NCBI GenBank assembly: GCA_900317975.1
Contig: ONIZ01000002.1
Location: 6,473 to 70,472, forward strand
Source: an uncultured Bacillota bacterium
Lineage (GTDB): Bacteria; Bacillota_I; Bacilli_A; RF39; UBA660
Direction of reading: 5' to 3'
Length of the DNA stretch: 64,000 nt
The notes beneath the pieces were generated by a model, which was not told where the DNA came from, made no database searches, and was given only the letters and a program-made list of their open reading frames with translations. How positions within the stretch are numbered: the first letter of the stretch is position 1; every line of letters starts with the position of its first letter. The position numbers and the translations under genes were made by a program. Positions 1-13,739 of the stretch are shown in pieces.

Positions 1-328
1 TTTTAAACGTACCAACATATGGTAGATGAGCAACACATTCATTTAATAAAGTTTCTTTACAAAAAAGTTCAGCATTAAATACTATACTTGTTAATTTTTT
101 TCTTTCTTCTTCAGTTATATCATTAATTTGATTTATTATATCTCTTTCTTCTAATACATTTACATCCCAATATTTTCCATCATACCATATTTTATTTTCA
201 TATTGAGAGGCGTCTAATTTTGGCTTTTCAGTATCTATTTTAGACATAGCCTTATTTGGCAATCTTCTCCATTCTCGTTTATACTCTTTTGATTTATGTT
301 TATCTTTAAAATTAAAAGATAGTCCCAT
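1..328 (-). CDS. hypothetical protein, N-terminal part only (ORF runs off the left edge)
   Basis: Reverse-strand ATG at 328 (MGLSFNFKDKHKSKEYKREWRRLPNK...) stays open to position 1. It is absent from the ORF track because no stop lies in the window. Confidence 0.45.
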   Translation of the reverse strand, partial: MGLSFNFKDKHKSKEYKREWRRLPNKAMSKIDTEKPKLDASQYENKIWYDGKYWDVNVLEERDIINQINDITEEERKKLTSIVFNAELFCKETLLNECVAHLPYVGTFK

Positions 329-363
329 AATATAAATTTTAACATCAATAGCCTATATTTAAT

Positions 364-376
364 CCCCTGTAAAGGG
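364..376 (+). repeat. dispersed GC-rich motif copy (cccctgtaaaggg), intergenic
   Basis: Sits at the centre of the 11-bp palindrome 348-358/383-393. Confidence 0.8.
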
Positions 377-403
377 AATGTCATATAGGCTATCGACAAT
401 TAC

Positions 404-1036
404 TTATTCAGCAACAGCATCGTTTAGTTCTTTTGCTTTAGCAGGAACTTCAGCATGAACTTCAGGAATTACCTTAATAAAAGGATCGTTATAACTAATG
501 TTATTATCTACAGTTCCATGAATTGCTGTAACAGGTACAATTTTAAAGCTCATAAAGCAAATAGGATGTTCTTTAATAGGTACATTATTTTCATCCTTTG
601 CAGTTCCAGAAAGAATTGTAGCTGTAAGATAATTTTTCTCTTTAGGTTCTTTACTTGAAACAATTTTTTCTTCTCTGAGTAAATAAGAAATAATGTTTTC
701 GTATGTTAAAGCACTAGGAGGAGTAATTTGAGTTCCTCTTGCAATATCTGATTCATCGATTATAACTTGTTGTCCTATTTTCCATTCTGCAGGAATAGCG
801 TCCGAATTAATTTTAACAAGAACTGCAATATCAACTGCACGAGTTTTTACTTTAGGATTGTTTAAAGTTATAAGAAAATCATACATACGAACTTGTCGTA
901 CAACTGCTACAATTGCATAATGCTTTGGAAGATTAATACAATTTGTAACATCTTCATAATACTGTGCTGGAATCTCATGAATTGATTGAGGAAGAGATAA
1001 TGTATATCTCTCAACTCGACTTTGAAGAGTAATCAT
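404..1036 (-). CDS. hypothetical protein (210 aa)
   Basis: Long ORF with no competing ORF of comparable quality. The overlapping + ORF 455-658 is low complexity. Confidence 0.7.
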   Translation of the reverse strand: MITLQSRVERYTLSLPQSIHEIPAQYYEDVTNCINLPKHYAIVAVVRQVRMYDFLITLNNPKVKTRAVDIAVLVKINSDAIPAEWKIGQQVIIDESDIARGTQITPPSALTYENIISYLLREEKIVSSKEPKEKNYLTATILSGTAKDENNVPIKEHPICFMSFKIVPVTAIHGTVDNNISYNDPFIKVIPEVHAEVPAKAKELNDAVAE

Positions 1037-1084
1037 AAATTTGTTTGTTTAATTGTTAATATTGATATTAACTACAAATGTAGT

Positions 1085-1522
1085 TTAAAGAAGCATTACT
1101 AAAACTTTTTTACCATGAACGTCATCTTTTATATAATATTTATCATATAGATAAATTTTAGGATAAGCTTTTTTAACAATTCCTCTAGCAGTTAATTCAT
1201 TTAATGCTCTAATATAAGTTGGTCTACTAATTTTATATTTAATACAAAATATTTTTTCAAATTTAGCATTACTTTCAATTTCACCACCATTTTTATTTAA
1301 TTCTATAAATAAATTCTCACCATGTTTAGTAAGATTTAATAAATGAGCATAAATTTGTAATATATCTTGTTCTTCATTAGTCTTTTTAAAGACTGCAATA
1401 ACATCTTTTTCTTTTCCCCATAATTTAGTTTTATTAGCAACAACAAACTCATCGTCTGTTTTATCTAATAAAAAATCATCTTGAGGAGCTATAAATTCAT
1501 TAAAAACTGTTTTAAGTTCCAT
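1085..1522 (-). CDS. putative winged-helix/HTH DNA-binding regulator (145 aa)
   Basis: The segment ISRPTYIRALNELTARGIVKK looks like a helix-turn-helix recognition unit. The gene sits next to a divergent promoter region. Confidence 0.5.
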   Translation of the reverse strand: MELKTVFNEFIAPQDDFLLDKTDDEFVVANKTKLWGKEKDVIAVFKKTNEEQDILQIYAHLLNLTKHGENLFIELNKNGGEIESNAKFEKIFCIKYKISRPTYIRALNELTARGIVKKAYPKIYLYDKYYIKDDVHGKKVLVMLL

Positions 1523-1583
1523 AGTTGCAAATACATTATTTGTTCTACTTTAGTCTATTTTTTGTACATTTGTACAACCAGCA

Positions 1584-1615
1584 CAAAGATACAAAAAAAA
1601 TTCCATATATGCAAA
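1584..1615 (-). promoter_or_regulatory. Bacteroidota-type promoter for 1085-1522
   Basis: On the reverse strand: TTTG (1612-1615 rc), a 20-nt spacer, then TATCTTTG (1584-1591 rc). This matches TTTG-N(19-21)-TAnnTTTG. Confidence 0.6.
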
Positions 1616-1631
1616 TTTTTTTGCAAAATTA

Positions 1632-1663
1632 TTTGCAAAAATCGATTTTTTTTACTATCTTTG
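1632..1663 (+). promoter_or_regulatory. Bacteroidota-type promoter firing rightward into non-coding DNA
   Basis: TTTG 1632-1635, a 20-nt spacer, then TATCTTTG 1656-1663. There is no ORF downstream until 2729. Confidence 0.6.
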
Positions 1664-1668
1664 TAGGC

Positions 1669-2074
1669 ATATAAAAAGTTACATATATTATATAATGTAC
1701 GCGCGTGAGTATGTCATATTATATAAAATTTTATATGTTCTTATAAATTTTGAATATAATAGCATTAATGATATTAAAGAAAGCCGAGCCAAAGATTAAA
1801 CAGAAACTCGTTTATCTGCGGACGGTATATATGCTTCGGCATATATCGAAGAAGTCCATGTTATGTTTCATAGCAATGTCAGTGACTATCTGGTGGTAGG
1901 GGTGTGGGTAGGGTTACGGTATCGTATCCCGCAAATAATATTATTAATGCTATAAAATATAATAATCGTTGTGATAACGATACTTTTTGATGTCATTTTG
2001 AGTGAATAGTTTTCGGTGTAGATTTATGTATGTTTAGATAGGAATTGTTGTGAAACAGTTCCTATCATTTTTTT
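1669..2074 (+). ncRNA. candidate structured non-coding RNA (about 400 nt), family not recognised
   Basis: Bounded by the promoter at 1632-1663 and the intrinsic terminator at 2038-2074. It has an 8-bp hairpin capped by C(UUCG)G at 1827-1846, an 11-bp closing helix 1759-1769/1943-1953, and a helix 1817-1821/1929-1933. There is no ORF. Confidence 0.45.
2038..2074 (+). terminator. intrinsic terminator
   Basis: Hairpin ATAGGAATTG...CAGTTCCTAT (2038-2065) followed by a run of 7 T (2068-2074). Confidence 0.7.
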
Positions 2075-2230
2075 ATGTTACTCATAATATTAATAAAAGC
2101 TAAAGGATAGTAGAACGTATATACTACATATACGGGCATTAAATAAAATTAAAGTAATACCCCCGTTAGTGTTATTAATAAAAATATTTTTGTAAATAAA
2201 TAAATAGGTGAGAAAGTTTTATGATACAAT

Positions 2231-2243
2231 CACTCTACAGGGG
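2231..2243 (-). repeat. dispersed GC-rich motif copy (rc cccctgtagagtg), non-coding
   Basis: Shares the extended flank atatttaatcccctgta with the copy at 364. Confidence 0.8.
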
Positions 2244-2383
2244 ATTAAATATGAGATATAACTAAAATTGTTGATATTATTATAATTATTGTATTTAAAT
2301 AAGTTATAAAGAATGTTTAATGGATTATTATAATATATAAAATAATATATTAAATATATGAAGAGGTTTAATAATGTTATTAA

Positions 2384-2491
2384 GACGATTTAGGAAAAGA
2401 TTATAGTGAAAATTATATGGAAAATTATATTGAAAATTATGATAAAGATTGTGGTGAAGATTTTAATGAAGATTTAGATGTAGATAGTAGG
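2384..2491. repeat. tandem array of nine degenerate 12-nt units (consensus about GAAGATTWTRRT)
   Basis: Units read in register: gacgatttagga, aaagattatagt, gaaaattatatg, gaaaattatatt, gaaaattatgat, aaagattgtggt, gaagattttaat, gaagatttagat, gtagatagtagg. Confidence 0.7.
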
Positions 2492-2582
2492 ATAAAAAAT
2501 TTTGTCGATTAGCGAGAAGAGGAGGGTATTACCACAAAGGGTGGGGGTGTGATAAGTGAATGTCAATACCCCCGTCATATCG

Positions 2583-2614
2583 AACCTCGTGAGAAAACAG
2601 GTCAGATTTCGAAT
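2583..2614 (+). promoter_or_regulatory. conserved 32-nt upstream box, copy 1 (upstream of 2729-3316)
   Basis: aacctcgtgagaaaacaggtcagatttcgaat matches the box at 3811-3842 at 28 of 32 positions. Confidence 0.5.
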
Positions 2615-2728
2615 GAATAAATGTTTTTCAAATATTATTCATTTATTACTGAAGTAAGTCATCTGACTACGCTTGCTTTAGCACATTATCCAATAAGTTA
2701 GTCACTCAATACAAATTCTGTTACAACT

Positions 2729-3316
2729 ATGGCACAGCCAAAAGCTAATGCAGTTGAGCAAGTTCCTGCACAAGTCGTTAACGCAGTTGAAACTGCAAGT
2801 GTTAATCTTCTTAGCTTCTCTGAAGCAGTCGATGCAACGATTGCTGATGGTGGCAAAGTAACAAAGGGTATTCATATTACTCGTGCGACTTATAGTCGTC
2901 GAGAAGATGGACACGAGATTGTTACTTTGACAGGCGATATACCTGTTGAGCGTTATGTTGCTGATGAGACAAATCCTGATGTATTTGTCAAATCAATGTC
3001 CAAGTCATTTGTTGTGTCATTATTCTCATTAGTGGGAATGATGTCCAACATGAAGGACGCACAAGTGCTCGCAGGTCGTATCTCAAAGCGACCAATGTTG
3101 ATAGAGAGTTTGCTACCAGGTAGTATTATTACAGTAGTTCAACGTGATGTCAAAGGTAATGTTCCGTTTATGAACTACTTTAGTAACAAGGAGAATACTA
3201 TCGATCATGATAGTATTGTTACCGACGTAGTCAAACTTGAAGTATCTGATTTTGCTCGTTCTATGATGGATGAGTACAAAAAGATGCTTGCATCTGCATT
3301 GATGGGAGACTTGTAG
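2729..3316 (+). CDS. hypothetical protein, paralog A of a duplicated gene (195 aa)
   Basis: Long ORF that is visibly less A+T-rich than its surroundings. It is strongly similar to 3906-4460 (ITRATYS.RE.DGHE.VTLT...PDVFVKS.SK.FVVSLFSLVG.MS.MKDAQVLAGRISKRP). Confidence 0.8.
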   Translation: MAQPKANAVEQVPAQVVNAVETASVNLLSFSEAVDATIADGGKVTKGIHITRATYSRREDGHEIVTLTGDIPVERYVADETNPDVFVKSMSKSFVVSLFSLVGMMSNMKDAQVLAGRISKRPMLIESLLPGSIITVVQRDVKGNVPFMNYFSNKENTIDHDSIVTDVVKLEVSDFARSMMDEYKKMLASALMGDL

Positions 3317-3324
3317 TTGATGAT

Positions 3325-3362
3325 AGATTTGCAGGTGATGATTGTTCATTGCCTGCAAATCT
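3325..3362 (+). terminator. hairpin after paralog A (terminator-like)
   Basis: Perfect 11-bp stem AGATTTGCAGG/CCTGCAAATCT with a 16-nt loop. The T tract after it is weak. Confidence 0.45.
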
Positions 3363-3432
3363 TTGCATTGTTATAGTTGTAGTATGATGTTGAGTAGAAA
3401 TTGCAATTATTAACCAATTAAATTATACAATT

Positions 3433-3753
3433 ATGATCGCACTTGCTCCAAAACATTCAGAAGCAATTCAAATTCTTGCTTCGCTTCCTAAAAAAGAAGT
3501 TTCTGATGTTCGTCTTGCTTACAATGGTGAAGTAGTAGCCATTGTTGATGAATCAACAATTCGTGCTCTTCAAGTTGCTATTCATGATGGTCTTACAGAT
3601 TATCGTAGATGGCTTATACTTGAAGATTACGATGATGATGAAAATGGTCATCATACAAACTTTCTTCATTTTAGAGAAGATGGTAGAATATCTGATGAGT
3701 TTAAAACAGATTTCTTTAGATTTCTAGACGATCTTGCATACAAGATCTTCTAG
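3433..3753 (+). CDS. hypothetical acidic protein (106 aa)
   Basis: ORF lying between the two paralogs, with an Asp/Glu-rich centre (LEDYDDDENGHH). Confidence 0.65.
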   Translation: MIALAPKHSEAIQILASLPKKEVSDVRLAYNGEVVAIVDESTIRALQVAIHDGLTDYRRWLILEDYDDDENGHHTNFLHFREDGRISDEFKTDFFRFLDDLAYKIF

Positions 3754-3761
3754 TTGATTAT

Positions 3762-3805
3762 GGTTCTAATATAGCTAGTATTCATTTACTAGTTATATTA
3801 GAACC
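3762..3805 (+). terminator. long hairpin (19-bp stem, loop TTCATT)
   Basis: GGTTCTAATATAGCTAGTA pairs with TACTAGTTATATTAGAACC with one G-T wobble. It lies immediately downstream of the stop at 3753. Confidence 0.45.
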
Positions 3806-3810
3806 TCAAA

Positions 3811-3842
3811 AACCTCGTGAGAATACAGGAAAGAATTCGAAT
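3811..3842 (+). promoter_or_regulatory. conserved 32-nt upstream box, copy 2 (upstream of 3906-4460)
   Basis: aacctcgtgagaatacaggaaagaattcgaat matches the box at 2583-2614 at 28 of 32 positions. Confidence 0.5.
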
Positions 3843-3905
3843 CTATTAAGCGTTTAAGCGTTTAACAGTTCTATTAATTATTTAACAATTTAAATTGTAA
3901 AAACA

Positions 3906-4460
3906 ATGAACGATGAAAAAGCAAAGGAAGTTGTAAGTCAGCCACAACTATTGACCTTTACTGAGGCAATTACTGCCACAAAAGCTGACAATGCATCTGA
4001 AGTAAAGAATCTTCAGATTACTCGTGCTACATATTCAAAGCGTGAGGAAGATGGTCATGAAGTAGTGACATTAACAACAAGTGGTCTTGTTGACAGATAT
4101 ATTGCGGATAACGATAATCCCGATGTATTTGTTAAGAGCAAAAGCAAAACTTTTGTAGTATCTTTGTTTAGTCTTGTAGGTGCTATGAGTCAAATGAAAG
4201 ATGCTCAAGTTCTTGCTGGACGTATTTCTAAACGTCCTGTTCTTGTTGAATCTCTTCTTCCTGGTTCTACTATTACTGTACTTCAACGTGAAGTTAAGGC
4301 TAATGTTCCTTTCATGAATTATTTCAGTGGAAAGGAAAACACTATTGACCATGATAGTGTTGTAACAGATATTGCTGATATTAAGCTTGGAGAGTTTGCT
4401 CTTAGTACTCTTGATGCTTATAAGCAAAATCTTGCTGCTGCTCTTATGGGCGATTTGTAA
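3906..4460 (+). CDS. hypothetical protein, paralog B of a duplicated gene (184 aa)
   Basis: Roughly three quarters identical to 2729-3316 over the C-terminal 150 aa, judged by eye. Confidence 0.8.
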   Translation: MNDEKAKEVVSQPQLLTFTEAITATKADNASEVKNLQITRATYSKREEDGHEVVTLTTSGLVDRYIADNDNPDVFVKSKSKTFVVSLFSLVGAMSQMKDAQVLAGRISKRPVLVESLLPGSTITVLQREVKANVPFMNYFSGKENTIDHDSVVTDIADIKLGEFALSTLDAYKQNLAAALMGDL

Positions 4461-4467
4461 AAGAGTT

Positions 4468-4500
4468 GCTGCTGTATTGTGAAATACGGCAGCGATTCTT
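4468..4500 (+). terminator. intrinsic terminator-like hairpin
   Basis: GCTGCTGTATT-GTGA-AATACGGCAGC (one G-T wobble) followed by gattcttatt. Confidence 0.55.
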
Positions 4501-4603
4501 ATTGTAACAGAATTTTCAGGTACATTATAATACCATAAGTGTTATAGTGTACCATTTAATGCAGCTAATTAACAGTCGTAAGCCTGTGTAAATGCAGAAC
4601 GAA

Positions 4604-4765
4604 ATGAAAATTCTTGTTGATAGTGATATTATTATTAAAGAAGTTGATAAATGTGATGATGGAGCAGCTCCTGCTCTCCATTCTAATCATTTTACTAATA
4701 ATATTACTAATCCATTTCAAATAATTAATACAAGAATTAAACAAATGAAACTTATATACATTTAG
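4604..4765 (+). CDS. possible small ORF (53 aa) in an otherwise non-coding region
   Basis: ATG 4604 to TAG 4763-4765 (MKILVDSDIIIKEVDKCDDGAAPALHSNHF...). There is no other support. Confidence 0.2.
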   Translation: MKILVDSDIIIKEVDKCDDGAAPALHSNHFTNNITNPFQIINTRIKQMKLIYI

Positions 4766-5457
4766 TGTAATTAAATATATATTACTAATGTTATATTATC
4801 AATTTTAATTTCCGCACTATAAAGCGCGCCTATTGATATGACAATAATAATGTTGGTAATATAAATACTATCATTTAATATGATATAATTGTAAATCATT
4901 TTGCTATTTAATACATCGATTGACGATGTCTTCGCTGATGATACGCAATATATCATTTAGATGATAGCAATTCATGAAATCCTACTTGGAGACGAGAAAC
5001 GGCTCATATTGAGTATCGTAAAGTTAATCCTTGATAGGTTGCATCAAGAGATACAGCAAAATATATCAGACAGTTTGTTGGTTTATAATGTCTTGATTAT
5101 TTTGTTGTATTTCTTGAGATAGTTTATGTTGAGCCTAGAGCACATAATGCTGCTATAGGTAGAATTTTTCCCATAGTACGTGATTTAGAAACCAACTATG
5201 TTAGCAGTCAGAATAACTGTTATTACAGTAAATCGTCATGCTGTGATAAATATCATATAATGTCAAAAATATGATATGATGACAACGATGCTAAGCAAAA
5301 AGCTGGTAACGATAAGAAAGAGATAGGTGAGAAGAGTGCACTCGCATCTAGACTATCTCTTTATCTTAATGTAGCCAATCGATATGATTGAGAGTCCAAA
5401 GCCTCTATAAATACAGATGGAGATAATATTATTAATAACAAATAAATTCACGCAATC

Positions 5458-5913
5458 ATGAAAAAGTATTTTAAAGAATTTATAGGAACATTAGTTCTTA
5501 TAATTTGTTTTATTATTTTAACAATAACGTTTATTGCTATAGGAAAATATTATAACGATACAATACTTATCGTTATAGGTATAACAATTAATGTTTTAAC
5601 TATAATTATGTTAATTGTTATAAATATTCAAGAAATAAACGAACGTGATAAAATTATACATAATCTAAATGAAAAAATAACTGAAGAACATACTTCAGTT
5701 ATAATGACTAGAATGATGTGTAATCAAGCTTTATCAGATGCTCTAATTTTAAGAAAAATAATTGACCAAAAAAATAAAAAAATAGAAAAATATGAAAAAC
5801 ATATAAATGAATTAATTCATAAAATTAATTGTATAAATAATGAAGCAAAAGAGCTTCAAGATTTATGCAATAGATATGAAACTCAATATGGTAAATTGAC
5901 AGATCAAGAATAA
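5458..5913 (+). CDS. membrane-anchored coiled-coil protein (151 aa)
   Basis: Two hydrophobic N-terminal segments (LVLIICFIILTITFIAIG; ILIVIGITINVLTIIMLIVI) followed by heptad-like charged sequence. Confidence 0.7.
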   Translation: MKKYFKEFIGTLVLIICFIILTITFIAIGKYYNDTILIVIGITINVLTIIMLIVINIQEINERDKIIHNLNEKITEEHTSVIMTRMMCNQALSDALILRKIIDQKNKKIEKYEKHINELIHKINCINNEAKELQDLCNRYETQYGKLTDQE

Positions 5914-5920
5914 ATTTGTT

Positions 5921-5933
5921 CCCCTGTAGAGGG
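5921..5933 (+). repeat. dispersed GC-rich motif copy (cccctgtagaggg), intergenic
   Basis: Forms the hairpin TGTTCCC/GGGAACA at 5918-5937, immediately after the stop of 5458-5913. Confidence 0.85.
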
Positions 5934-6152
5934 AACATATCTATCAATTGCTAATATTGATACTGTTATAGATAATAATAAATATAATATTGATATAGTT
6001 AATATATTATAACTTGTATATATATTATATATATTATATATAATAATTATATTATATATTTATTTATTATTATTTATAATAATAAATATAACGCACGTGC
6101 GTGCGCGTATAGTGTTTTGTAGAACATATATAATAATAAAAAATATCGTTTT

Positions 6153-6431
6153 ATGTATAGTTTATCAACTATTATAGAAAGTCAAACATGGGATAATCTT
6201 GAAGATATGCTTGAAGAACTTCATGCTAATGAAAGAACAATTCCTTGTGGAATCATTCTTGATAAGAATGGAAAAGTTGAATTTACCAATACTTTTGAAT
6301 TACTTAAAGCAGTTCAAGAACGTATTGAATTAAAACAACAAACTATACGTTATTCTTTATTTAATATCGATTTCGAAACAAATAAAGTAATAGCGACTAT
6401 TAAAGACTATGTATTAAGTTATAAAGGTTGA
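6153..6431 (+). CDS. hypothetical protein (92 aa)
   Basis: Clean ORF on the + strand. Confidence 0.6.
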   Translation: MYSLSTIIESQTWDNLEDMLEELHANERTIPCGIILDKNGKVEFTNTFELLKAVQERIELKQQTIRYSLFNIDFETNKVIATIKDYVLSYKG

Positions 6432-6660
6432 AATCCCTTTGCAAGAGTAACTTCCCGATATACTTTGTATATTTTCGCCGCTCTTGCATAAAATCATAAT
6501 CTTGTTATACAACCTTGACGAGGTGATTATGCTTTTACTAATAGTATAACACATGAGATTGTGTGAGAAGGAGCAGATGAAAGAATTAATCTTTTGTCTG
6601 CTCTTTATATTAAATTCTTACACTATCTTATAATATTAATCTTTAAAATCTCACACAATT

Positions 6661-6855
6661 ATGACACAAACAGCATCAAAACCATTACCTATTAATTGTG
6701 CAATAGGTACATGTGTAAAAAGAATTAAAAAAGTAGTTTATTTCTCAGAACAAGGAATAAATCTATTTAAAACTATTTCTTTTCCTACAGTTTTAGCAGC
6801 ACAAAATTATGTTAAACTATTAACAAAGAAAAAGGAATATGCAAAATCATGGTAA
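6661..6855 (+). CDS. hypothetical protein (64 aa)
   Basis: Clean ORF on the + strand. Confidence 0.5.
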   Translation: MTQTASKPLPINCAIGTCVKRIKKVVYFSEQGINLFKTISFPTVLAAQNYVKLLTKKKEYAKSW

Positions 6856-6894
6856 ACTATTATGTTGTATAATATAATAAAATCAATATAATGG

Positions 6895-7043
6895 ATTTGC
6901 AGATATAATAAATAGTAATATAACATTTAATATTAACAATGGGTTATGTTATATTGTTATCTAAATCACAATACATTAAAATTATTACAAGTTTCGTATA
7001 TTTTTAATGTTCTACCTATTGTTATATCTGCAAATTCATTTTT
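6895..7043 (+). terminator. long nested hairpin with T tract
   Basis: 14-bp arms ATTTGCAGATATAA (6895-6908) and TTATATCTGCAAAT (7022-7035) enclose a second 10-bp inverted repeat. They are followed by tcattttt. Confidence 0.45.
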
Positions 7044-7065
7044 ATTGAAATATTTTGCTGAAAAA

Positions 7066-7097
7066 TTTGGAATTATCAAAAATATTTTGTATATTTG
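7066..7097 (+). promoter_or_regulatory. Bacteroidota-type promoter for 7147-7692
   Basis: TTTG 7066-7069, a 20-nt spacer, then TATATTTG 7090-7097. The architecture is near-identical to the promoters at 18071 and 25197. Confidence 0.65.
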
Positions 7098-7146
7098 TGT
7101 ACAAAATAAAAAACAATATTGTTTTACTAATTAAATTATTAAATCT

Positions 7147-7692
7147 ATGAGTTATGGTTATCAAAGACCTCATTATAACAATCGAGGTCGCAATTACGGT
7201 CGTAATTATGGTCGTCGTCCATTTGTTCCTGCCACTAAAGACAAAGAAGAAACTGTAAAGTATCCTGGACTTCCACCTTTTGTACAAAATTTAGATGCAC
7301 ATTTAGTTCGTCTTGTACGAATTGTGCAAGGTAATGATGATATTAGGAGATATATATCTCTTGGTATCATTAATAGACTTATTAAATCTAAAGCAATTAC
7401 TGAAGGTGGAAACTATATACGTTTCCGTTGGGATAAATTTACTGTTTGCAGTAAAGGTATTAATACCGATTATCGGTATAATGATCCTATCTTTCTTCAA
7501 TCGTTTGTTGGATCATTTACAATTTTGACCAATGTTGCGTCTAAAGCATTAGAAAATTTTGTCAAAATTGAATTTGATCAACCAGCAGAAAAAGTAATTG
7601 ACGGAAGTGATCCTGACGGTGTTGATAAAGAGCTTATTGAAAAGCAACTCAACACAGATGAAAACCTTGGAGTTTTTGAGGAACAGCAATAA
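7147..7692 (+). CDS. hypothetical protein with Arg/Gly/Tyr-rich N-terminus (181 aa)
   Basis: N-terminus reads NNRGRNYGRNYGRRP, and a promoter lies 50 nt upstream. Confidence 0.75.
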   Translation: MSYGYQRPHYNNRGRNYGRNYGRRPFVPATKDKEETVKYPGLPPFVQNLDAHLVRLVRIVQGNDDIRRYISLGIINRLIKSKAITEGGNYIRFRWDKFTVCSKGINTDYRYNDPIFLQSFVGSFTILTNVASKALENFVKIEFDQPAEKVIDGSDPDGVDKELIEKQLNTDENLGVFEEQQ

Positions 7693-7706
7693 ATAAAAAT
7701 TTATAT

Positions 7707-7765
7707 AGTAATAAGAATACTACGGCTTTATAGCAATAAAGTTAGGAAAATGTATTCTTATTACT
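7707..7765 (+). terminator. hairpin with 13-bp stem (terminator-like)
   Basis: AGTAATAAGAATA pairs with TATTCTTATTACT and is followed by attttaaaaa. Confidence 0.4.
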
Positions 7766-7786
7766 ATTTTAAAAATTGATTTTATT

Positions 7787-7972
7787 ATGAAAAAGAATGG
7801 TCAATTCGATAAGAAAGAATTAGAAGTTATGCCTTCTAAAATTAAAGAAGCTATTTTAGAACTTAAAAAGATTCGTTATGTTTCTCCTAAACAATATGGT
7901 GTAGCAATTGCTAATTCTCCACGTCATGCATCACTTAAAGGTAAACGTATGGTTTATCTTAATAAACACTAA
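7787..7972 (+). CDS. hypothetical protein (61 aa)
   Basis: Clean ORF on the + strand. Confidence 0.55.
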   Translation: MKKNGQFDKKELEVMPSKIKEAILELKKIRYVSPKQYGVAIANSPRHASLKGKRMVYLNKH

Positions 7973-7978
7973 AATGTT

Positions 7979-8143
7979 ATGTATGTCGATGAAAATGGTA
8001 AAATTCATCTTCAATCTGCTAAAACTTTAAAAGATTTAGGAGAATACGCTTTAAATGATTATGACGACGTAGCACATGAATTAGAAGAAACATTAAATAA
8101 AGGAGATGAAGATGAAGAAATGGCTGAAATGTTAAATTATTAA
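7979..8143 (+). CDS. small acidic hypothetical protein (54 aa)
   Basis: Read by hand: MYVDENGKIHLQSAKTLKDLGEYALNDYDDVAHELEETLNKGDEDEEMAEMLNY. It is tightly packed with its neighbours and is preferred over the antisense track ORF 8019-8237. Confidence 0.5.
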   Translation: MYVDENGKIHLQSAKTLKDLGEYALNDYDDVAHELEETLNKGDEDEEMAEMLNY

Positions 8144-11774: not shown

Positions 11775-12286
11775 GCAAAATAACTTTTTCTTTTACAGTA
11801 CCTCATAGAACAAGTACTGCAAAATCTAAAAGAAATAATGCAAATCACTCTGCCAAGATAATTGACGGAGTGATTTGCATTGATGAAAATGCTAATTATT
11901 CTGTAAAAAGTCTATGTAGTAATGGAGAATTAAAAACTTATAATATTTCTAAGTCTTCCTATAGTTGTAAAAATAAAGAAGTAATATATCGTTTTAATGA
12001 AGGAGAAAGAGGTATAATGCAATTATGGCGTCCAAGTATACATCTTTCAGAAAGTGTTTATAATTTTAAACCTTTTGCTCCAGGCGTAATAGTTGAAGGA
12101 TATTTAATTAAAGATTCTAATTTAGAAGATGTTATAGAAATAATTAAAATTCATAATATTATAGATGATGATAAAAATTTATATAATAAATATTATAATA
12201 CATGTAAAGCAGTAAAAAGTTTTTATAATGATAATTGGAAAACTATTCATAATTCTTATGAAATGAAATATGGAAATGCAAAATAG
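11771..12286 (+). CDS. hypothetical protein (171 aa)
   Basis: ORF whose start overlaps the previous stop by 4 nt (ATGA). Confidence 0.65.
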   Translation: MSKITFSFTVPHRTSTAKSKRNNANHSAKIIDGVICIDENANYSVKSLCSNGELKTYNISKSSYSCKNKEVIYRFNEGERGIMQLWRPSIHLSESVYNFKPFAPGVIVEGYLIKDSNLEDVIEIIKIHNIIDDDKNLYNKYYNTCKAVKSFYNDNWKTIHNSYEMKYGNAK

Positions 12287-13739
12287 TATTGTCCCTTTAC
12301 GGGGGAACAATAATAATTCAATAACATTCACAAAAGGTCAAGAAATAGCAGTTAAAGAAATACTTAACTTCCTTACTGAACCTTTTGATAAAGCTAAATT
12401 TATAGCTGGATTAATAGGTGCAGGTGGAGTAGGTAAAACATTTGTTATAAAATATATATTAGCAAATTGTAATTATTCTAAAAGTGTAATAACTTGTTGT
12501 AGTACAACTCATAAAGCTTGTAGAGTATTCTATGAAGCTTTAAATGGACTTTATCAAGTATATACAATTCAAAGTACATTTGGTTTTAGAATGGATTTAA
12601 AACTTGAAGATTTTAATCCAAATAATCCACAATTTGCTCCAAAAGCTACTCCTAAAATAGATGATACTAAAATTTTAATTGTTGATGAAGCAAGTATGAT
12701 ACCTGCAAGTTTAGTTGGATATATTAGAAAAGTTTGTATTGAAAAAGAAATTAAAATTTTATTTGTTGGTGATAACGATCAATTACCTCCAGCTAAACAA
12801 TTAAAAAGTACAGCATTTGATATTTGTTTTAAAAAGTTTGTTTTAAATGAAATTGTAAGACAAGGTGTAAAAAATCCTATTTTAGGACTATTAGATATGT
12901 TAAGATATGATATTGAAAATAATACTAATAGATTTATAAGATATTTAACAACTAATATAGGAACAATGAATTATAATGAAAATAATGAAGGTTATTGTAT
13001 ATTAAATAGACAAGAATTTACTCAAGCTGTAGTAAATAAATTTAGTAATCCAGATTATTCTAAAAATATTGATTTATATAGAATGATAACTTATACAAAT
13101 GATGCTGTACAATCATGGAATGATTTTATTAGAAATATTATAGTAATTGATTCAGAAAAAAATATATTAACAAAACATGATTTATTAATGGCATATGAAA
13201 CTATTGTAGATGATTATCAAAGTCCTATAATAATTAATAGTGAAGAATATATTGTAAATGAAATAGTAAATTATATAGATAATACTTATAAATTTAAAGG
13301 ATTTAATGTACGTCTTCAAGCAATACATGGTGGAAAAATAACTACACCAATGTTTATTATAGATCATAGAGATAGATATACAATGTTAAAATATCATGAA
13401 ATTGTAAGTTCTCTTATAAAAGATGCTAAATCTTCTAGTATAGGTGTTCGTTCTGCAAAATGGAAAAAGTATTTTGATTTTAAACGTAAATATCTTTTAC
13501 TTAAAAATGTTAAAAATGCTTTAGGAGAATTACTTTATGATAGAGATTTAGATTATGGTTTTGCTATAACCTCTCATAAATCTCAAGGAAGTACTTATGG
13601 TTGTGTATTTGTTGATTGTATGGATATGATTTATGATAAACGTGGATTACCTTATACATTAACAAGTGATTTACTTAAACGACTTTATGTTGCTTGTAGT
13701 AGAGCAAAAACAGAATTAATACTTTGTTATGGAAGATAA
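12270..13739 (+). CDS. SF1 DNA helicase (RecD/Dda/Pif1-like)
   Basis: Walker A GAGGVGKTF, Walker B ILIVDEASM, GDNDQLPP, and the C-terminal SHKSQGSTY and YVACSRAK motifs. Confidence 0.85.
   Translation: MEMQNSIVPLRGNNNNSITFTKGQEIAVKEILNFLTEPFDKAKFIAGLIGAGGVGKTFVIKYILANCNYSKSVITCCSTTHKACRVFYEALNGLYQVYTIQSTFGFRMDLKLEDFNPNNPQFAPKATPKIDDTKILIVDEASMIPASLVGYIRKVCIEKEIKILFVGDNDQLPPAKQLKSTAFDICFKKFVLNEIVRQGVKNPILGLLDMLRYDIENNTNRFIRYLTTNIGTMNYNENNEGYCILNRQEFTQAVVNKFSNPDYSKNIDLYRMITYTNDAVQSWNDFIRNIIVIDSEKNILTKHDLLMAYETIVDDYQSPIIINSEEYIVNEIVNYIDNTYKFKGFNVRLQAIHGGKITTPMFIIDHRDRYTMLKYHEIVSSLIKDAKSSSIGVRSAKWKKYFDFKRKYLLLKNVKNALGELLYDRDLDYGFAITSHKSQGSTYGCVFVDCMDMIYDKRGLPYTLTSDLLKRLYVACSRAKTELILCYGR
12293..12305 (-). 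repeat. dispersed GC-rich motif copy (rc cccccgtaaaggg), in the helicase gene
   Basis: Translated as VPLRGN. Confidence 0.65.

Follow-up and report, generated by a model that had tools for sequence, protein, structure and literature searches.

The window analysed here is a stretch of DNA of 64,000 nucleotides, corresponding to positions 6473–70472 of contig C78 (assembly G000). The contig has 89,241 nt with a 99-nt terminal overlap, giving a circular genome of 89,142 bp with a G+C content of 25.8%, which encodes a terminase large subunit, a major head protein, and two giant open reading frames (ORFs) of 4723 and 2245 aa. The terminase shares 62% identity with its counterpart in cr3_1 (Diorhovirus, Intestiviridae) and 56% with the one in Carjivirus communis, and on these identities C78 is classified as a crAss-like phage of Intestiviridae that was binned into a 1.9-Mb metagenome-assembled genome. 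The presence of a complete circular phage in this bacterial bin, for which a contamination of 7% is reported, is no evidence for the phage host. The contigs related to C78 originate from cow-rumen studies. The 12-nt array under study is located in a gene-free junction of 1.2 kb (1523–2728), between a leftward block, which contains the genes for a winged-helix protein, nuclease, lysis, terminase, and capsid, and a rightward early block. The features of this junction and its border are as follows.

1085–1522, minus strand: gene for a 145-aa protein with a predicted C-terminal winged-helix domain, the first gene of the leftward block (AlphaFold2, Foldseek, Pfam)
2037–2066, plus strand: terminator-like hairpin, a 13-bp stem followed by a T run, at the end of an upstream noncoding RNA (ncRNA) candidate
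2156–2166, plus strand: AATACCCCCGT, the first of two direct-repeat copies of 11 nt, resembling the tag when read on the minus strand
2237–2254, plus strand: copy of a dispersed G-run "tag" (CTACAGGGGATT), bordering the C-free tract on its 5′ side
2239–2505, plus strand: C-free tract of 267 nt, containing no more than two C and composed of 45% A, 17% G, and 38% T; the array forms its 3′ half
2384–2491, plus strand: nine-unit 12-nt tandem array with the consensus GAARATTNTRNT, a variable-copy repeat
2417–2512, plus strand: 31-aa ORF (MENYIENYDKDCGEDFNEDLDVDSRIKNFVD; ATG at 2417, TAG at 2510–2512), rejected as a gene
2492–2512, plus strand: conserved 3′ tail of the array (ATAAAAAATTTTGTCGATTAG), at the end of which the TAG closes the 31-aa ORF
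2524–2578, plus strand: G-run/C-run hairpin in which GGGGGT (2542–2547) pairs with ACCCCC (2568–2573), ending in the second copy of AATACCCCCGT (2565–2575) and CAT

The array belongs to the divergent control region, and the cumulative GC skew has its minimum here, at window position 1659. The original prediction put the array upstream of the replication genes; these are not its neighbours, as the SF1 helicase (12270–13739) is encoded approximately 10 kb downstream. Regarding the 145-aa protein at the leftward border, the AlphaFold2 model predicts a confident C-terminal winged helix (pLDDT 82–95 across residues 61–120), Foldseek returned generic MarR/Crp-like matches only (best E = 0.03), and Pfam gave HTH_Crp_2 at E = 0.07. 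A HMMER profile search with this winged-helix family recovered only 15 representatives, none of them informative. PHROGs and Pfam searches with the genes neighbouring the array gave no informative family and none above threshold, and an annotated phage collection contained no close or distant DNA or protein match to the intergenic region or the adjacent gene. The divergent promoter region (window 1606–1640) contains the word TGCAAA three times at 12-nt spacing, within a 41-nt imperfect palindrome. This promoter repeat is 69–71% similar to the array units, but the position weight matrix of the unit does not pick out the promoter region, and a kinship between the two repeats was dropped for want of backing from this matrix. 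The palindrome is a likelier candidate than the array for the operator of the 145-aa winged-helix protein. The ncRNA candidate ends at the hairpin at 2037–2066, and therefore the array lies outside that putative RNA. A sigma-70 promoter scan found fewer sites than were found in shuffled sequences. An Rfam search of window positions 1–8000 yielded nothing at the array; two matches to the type-P1 twister ribozyme (RF03160) lie on the plus strand between early genes at 4553–4606 and 5363–5424, with 44 and 57 bits (E = 2e-7 and 4e-11), both under the gathering score of 67.2.

The nine 12-nt units are present at 2384–2491 exactly as originally described, with the unit consensus G-A-A-R-A-T-T-N-T-R-N-T. 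Tandem Repeats Finder detects the array as a period-12 repeat at 2397–2474 (6.5 copies, 78% matches, score 65) and at 2400–2440 (89% matches, score 68), and as a period-24 repeat at 2396–2474 (score 75). The array matches itself with an identity of 0.69 when shifted by 12 nt, 0.64 when shifted by 24 nt, and 0.61 when shifted by 36 nt; other lags give approximately 0.33. A weaker period-12 signal is already visible from about position 2330. Of approximately 14,800 sliding windows of 108 nt across the whole phage contig, only four attain 0.69 at a lag between 5 and 30. All four overlap the array, which is the strongest short-period repeat in the 89,142-bp phage genome. A search of the genome with the unit position weight matrix found no second array. 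The units share a conserved core of 7 nt, while five of the 12 positions hold less than 0.9 bit of information.

This array is only part, the 3′ half, of a longer tract of biased composition. The tract at 2239–2505 contains the two longest C-free runs of the genome (2263–2385 and 2387–2505) and, at 267 nt, is the longest stretch in C78 with no more than two C, the next longest being 140 nt. Taken as RNA, it shows no folding beyond chance (z = 0.15). The tag copy at its 5′ edge belongs to a dispersed family whose core, AC[AG]GGGG[AT], has 15 matches on both strands of the genome, most of them in the context TCTACAGGGGA. The tract is also flanked by the exact 11-nt direct repeat AATACCCCCGT (2156–2166 and 2565–2575), both copies of which are tag-like on the minus strand; three tag-like words thus fall within 420 nt, against a genome-wide spacing of several kilobases. 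On the 3′ side, the G-run/C-run hairpin, with CCCCCGT as its 3′ arm, follows 64 nt downstream of the tract. Its stem has changed on both sides between the window (GGGGGT/ACCCCC) and the related L008 (GGGGGAG/CTCCCCC), a U-A to A-U exchange. A long-range pairing between the C-run at 2154–2164 and GGGTATTAC (2524–2532) is possible in the window; it was rejected as a candidate, being conserved in neither L008 nor L038.

Close contigs were found by exact-protein look-ups. The region 1001–3400 is unchanged in several rumen samples (L019–L021), and the array is also identical in L022 and L024. Three further variant types, L029/L033, L032, and L034/L036, encode an identical 145-aa winged-helix protein but have different early genes. 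Compared with the window, the array is longer by 72 nt in L029 (six units), by 96 nt in L034 (eight units), and by 107 nt in L032 (nine units minus one base), so that the proposed check of copy number among relatives revealed length changes in all three types, by whole units in two of them. The array thus consists, as minisatellites do, of head-to-tail copies of a single unit whose number differs among close genomes, in which the winged-helix gene varies at 1.8% of columns. The 3′ tail of the array (2492–2512) is near-identical in the window, L029, and L034, whereas L032 has a diverged tail that is shifted by 1 nt. Across the four variant types (window, L029, L032, and L034), the proportion of variable ungapped columns is 1.8% in the winged-helix gene, 1.3% in the promoters, 3.8% in the ncRNA candidate, 13% in the next spacer, 31–34% in the C-free tract with the array, and 15% in the hairpin; a further 133 gap columns come from the array. 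Directly after CCCCCGTCAT, at 2578, the homology with L029, L032, and L034 ends, which marks a mosaic breakpoint. As the density of substitutions climbs towards this breakpoint, part of the hypervariability of the array and tract may reflect recombination with a diverged allele. Beyond 2578, the first early genes of L029, L032, and L034 are wholly different (ORFs of 75 and 192 aa) and are preceded by a different box, CCTCGC...CTACAACATAG. L022 resembles a recombinant with a junction near 2325–2345. Short contigs from other samples repeatedly break in the tract or array: L023, L025, and L026 start at 2482–2487, L024 starts at 2324, and L035 and L037 end at 2295 and 2251, respectively, inside the C-free tract. 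Such breaks would be expected where a sample contains a mixture of repeat alleles. The sequence of the unit is kept only in the closest relatives, a point against the original prediction. Scans of IMG/VR with single-protein patterns, with the array itself, and with a hairpin-plus-box pattern gave no match, a scan with the G-rich word of the ncRNA candidate returned two unrelated loci only, and of two scans of JGI metagenomes, the first returned nothing and the second 120 matches, none from a relative.

More distant relatives show no sequence similarity to the window across 2160–2538. Their junctions were compared by composition. A tract was counted if it extended over at least 150 nt of the early-sense strand, held no more than two C, and stood at the head of the early block, a definition that includes the window tract. 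The comparative set comprises ten tracts in nine Intestiviridae lineages and is a sample, not a census. At the equivalent place, stretches with at most two C measure 292 nt in L008, 202 nt in L009, 217 nt in L038 (IMG/VR), 238 nt in cr3_1, where the tract holds a 24-nt array of 4.7 copies, 190 nt in ctbg_1, and 151 nt in cr271_1, the representative of Obtuvirinae. C. communis has two tracts of 303 and 174 nt, and nowhere else in its 97-kb genome does a stretch of 120 nt or more contain so few as two C; the feature is accordingly unique in both complete genomes checked, C78 (one tract) and C. communis (two tracts). The tracts are 150–370 nt long, their sense strand is 62–75% purine, and the sequences of different lineages are unrelated to each other. 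Most tracts have leading self-similarity lags of 12, 24, or 36, of which the period-3 signal is a harmonic, and RAGAT-like 5-mers are enriched 2–3 fold across the tracts of different lineages, representing a weak shared core. The motif CCCCCGT appears within 40–180 nt after the tract in seven of nine, preceded by TGAAC(T)/AATA and usually continuing as CCCCCGTCA; this end is absent in cr271_1 and in tract B of C. communis. These comparisons indicate that a C-free, repeat-structured tract at the head of the early block is conserved in Intestiviridae, whereas its sequence is not.

The prototype crAssphage, C. communis, is a second lineage in which composition and position are kept while length and frame are unstable. 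Its tract A (BK010471, from 96804 across the record origin to about 41) is the 303-nt stretch with at most two C and is partly annotated as KP06_gp01. This region resembles the window: such a tract opens the early block, here with a period of 6/12 and units like GATAATGAAAAT, and 44 nt after it comes GGGGTGGG...CTACCCCCGTCA. The region differs in that it is situated downstream of a RepL gene, whereas the window tract is downstream of the ncRNA candidate, in that it is annotated as a protein, and in that it has no sequence similarity to the window array. The gp01 ORF runs through the conserved hairpin in a frame other than the one the window would use. In strain O-152, deletions of 11 nt and approximately 110 nt cut gp01 to 17 aa after the ATG, and in LMMB gp01 is disrupted, the module of tract and hairpin being present twice and riddled with stops. 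KP06_gp01 is thus probably not a gene. OriFinder-predicted origins have been described at the start of the C. communis forward strand and approximately 2.6 kb downstream, with higher long-read coverage at the predicted origins, the second of which lies downstream of toxin-antitoxin genes (PMC10983915). By coordinate reading, tract B (BK010471 1790–2032; L041) coincides with this second predicted origin. Neither the skew minimum of the window nor the OriFinder predictions constitute independent evidence for an origin, because GC skew follows gene orientation and OriFinder uses skew.

Several explanations of the array have to be weighed against these data. The original prediction had offered, as an alternative to binding sites, a 31-aa acidic peptide translated from the array. 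The ORF exists as described and is annotated by gene callers in window-type genomes, but start, frame, and stop are not kept among relatives: in three of the four close variant types the frame is broken, by the loss of any ATG, GTG, or TTG start (L029), by a TAA within the frame (L034), or by a frameshift (L032), and the caller picks a different, Lys/Ile-rich frame in L034. Two of the three frames are open by construction, because GAA-RAT-TNT-RNT and AAR-ATT-NTR-NTG cannot hold a stop. The open stretch of 40 codons in the window tract is reached by 6% of composition-preserving shuffles, and the open frames are no longer than those of composition-matched shuffles in 10 of 12 tracts. C. communis gp01, which overlaps the equivalent tract with a 70-codon open frame reached by none of 500 shuffles, speaks for a small protein, but this ORF is itself truncated in O-152 and disrupted in LMMB, as mentioned above, and no PHROGs family matches. 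Recoding of TAG to Gln was also considered and rejected; it extends the ORF only 3′ through the hairpin, in a frame unlike that of C. communis gp01. That the array encodes either the acidic peptide (2417–2512) or a Lys/Ile-rich peptide in the +1 frame is thus very improbable, and the array is regarded as non-coding.

A row of double-strand binding sites, be it for replication initiation as in iterons, for partition as in centromere-like arrays, or for the winged-helix protein as its operator or sink, is an unlikely explanation, although it has the nine direct repeats with a conserved 7-nt core, the winged-helix gene next door, the equal 12-nt spacing and similarity of the TGCAAA promoter repeat, and the enrichment of R-A-G-A-T-like 5-mers across lineages in its favour. 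Iterons are typically 17–22 bp long, near-identical, and helically phased, and adjoin or lie inside the cognate Rep gene. As in the origins of lambda (ori), P1 (oriR), R6K, and pSC101, the direct repeats of the window occupy a non-coding, A+T-rich control region near a switch of gene orientation and GC skew. In contrast to those iterons, the units are only 12 nt long with a 7-nt core, off the helical repeat, degenerate (69% identity at lag 12), and turning over between close relatives. Nor is there a Rep gene alongside: the neighbouring genes have no family match above threshold, the 145-aa protein is a generic winged-helix protein, and RepL (PF05732) was not found in the assembly, while a RepA_N (PF06970) search is uninformative, with no match in the assembly or in any control genome. 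No DnaA box with up to one mismatch occurs in 1523–2728, and a DnaA-trio-like reading was discarded, as the orientation of the trinucleotides does not fit. The iteron label of the original prediction accordingly fails on unit length, copy similarity, and an adjacent Rep gene. Centromere-like arrays have short units, of 11 bp in R1 parC and of 12 bp in pBtoxis tubC, the latter bound by the winged-helix protein TubR; they share with the window many tandem units of 11–12 bp and a small winged-helix protein encoded nearby. However, ParA (PF01656) and tubulin (PF00091) match other contigs of the bin only and none on C78, and the winged-helix protein has only generic fold matches; a search for ParM (PF06406, StbA_N) is uninformative, since it had no match in any control genome either. 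The promoter region does not score with the unit matrix. A row of double-strand sites, including the parC/tubC comparison, explains the composition poorly: C is as rare at the variable positions between the unit cores, and in the half of the tract without repeats, as it is in the cores themselves.

Two further explanations start from the tract as a whole. The tract could be a functionless by-product, either a decayed low-complexity gene or slippage DNA in a spacer of which only the length matters. The complete turnover of sequence between lineages and the very high variability are compatible with this, and decayed coding sequence would look similar in its period-3 harmonic and D/E/N-rich frames. 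It is nevertheless unlikely, considering that C-freeness is kept in nine lineages that share no sequence, that the tract is unique in both complete genomes checked, and that its position beside the conserved hairpin is also kept; neutral decay would bring back C, which makes up 14% of this strand genome-wide. The other explanation is a transcribed but untranslated RNA leader, C-free to stay unstructured and to avoid loading Rho, a termination factor that needs C-rich, G-poor RNA. The tract lies just upstream of the first early genes and as RNA is essentially unstructured, in line with such a leader. [quoted passage not shown] Like the window, phi14:2 has long gene-free stretches at the start of a crAss-like rightward early block; it belongs to a different family, and the likeness noted here is one of position. 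Against a leader stand the lack of a conserved promoter between the terminator at 2037–2066 and the tract, where a TAnnTTTG-like word at about 2190 is broken in the alignment of L022, L029, and L034, and the fact that the other untranslated stretches of the junction are not C-free. Such a leader is therefore considered quite unlikely.

The explanation preferred here, held tentatively and at a little less than an even chance, is that slippage drives the copy number of the array, a non-coding repeat, and that the array belongs to a conserved C-free spacer of strand-asymmetric composition that acts single-stranded, perhaps as an opening or R-loop zone. The repeat, its variation in copy number, its non-coding nature, and the conservation of the C-free tract with its flanking hairpin are direct observations. 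The single-strand action and the link to initiation are inferred from sequence comparison, the former from the constancy of composition and position in the face of a complete turnover of sequence. Slippage would generate the repeat polymorphism of the array. The tract, placed at the head of the early block, begins in the lineage of the window and its close relatives at a copy of the dispersed G-run tag and ends in most lineages at the CCCCCGT hairpin (mostly CCCCCGTCA). It may work single-stranded, as unwound DNA or as RNA, instead of as a row of double-strand sites, and its most likely role would be that of an unstructured, easily opened or R-loop-prone zone at the divergent junction, used when replication or early transcription starts there. 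An origin-related role of the array region is possible. The literature supports the explanation indirectly, through the second predicted origin of C. communis and the transcribed early intergenic regions of phi14:2. Transcription-primed or R-loop origins include ColE1 RNA II, T4 oriF/oriG, and the T7 primary origin. These are, like the tract, strand-asymmetric and easily opened, and are located downstream of promoters at a presumed start of replication; the G content of the window tract, however, is only 17%, a moderate value with which the propensity for R-loops is not extreme. A more far-reaching proposal, doubtful but with some chance of being right, is that the tract represents an undescribed conserved initiation element of Intestiviridae, the prototype crAssphage included, at which the genome would first be opened, either as an R-loop or unwinding origin or as an entry site for the injected virion RNA polymerase; the composition and not the sequence would be read.

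To our knowledge, the replication origin and early promoters have not been defined experimentally for this most abundant family of human-gut phages. The unique C-free repeat tract with its hairpin at the head of the early block provides a concrete landmark for crAss-like phages. The analysis also removes an unsupported iteron label and a spurious small gene, and it suggests KP06_gp01 as a similar artefact. The array repeat also emerges as a strain marker with high polymorphism in rumen populations, and it probably causes breaks in assemblies.

Two further observations were made in C. communis. Tract B contains 40% G with GTGGAGATG-type repeats and is directly followed by a G-free TCCTCC repeat, creating a sharp local switch of skew. 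At the divergent junction of the same genome (BK010471 95720–95880; L040 approximately 4735–4880), the two arms of a perfect 17-nt inverted repeat, ACTCCCCGTGGAGGATG / CATCCTCCACGGGGAGT, flank a loop of approximately 100 nt that is poor in C and rich in repeats; tag-like arms on both sides of a C-poor repeat are the theme seen in the window as well.
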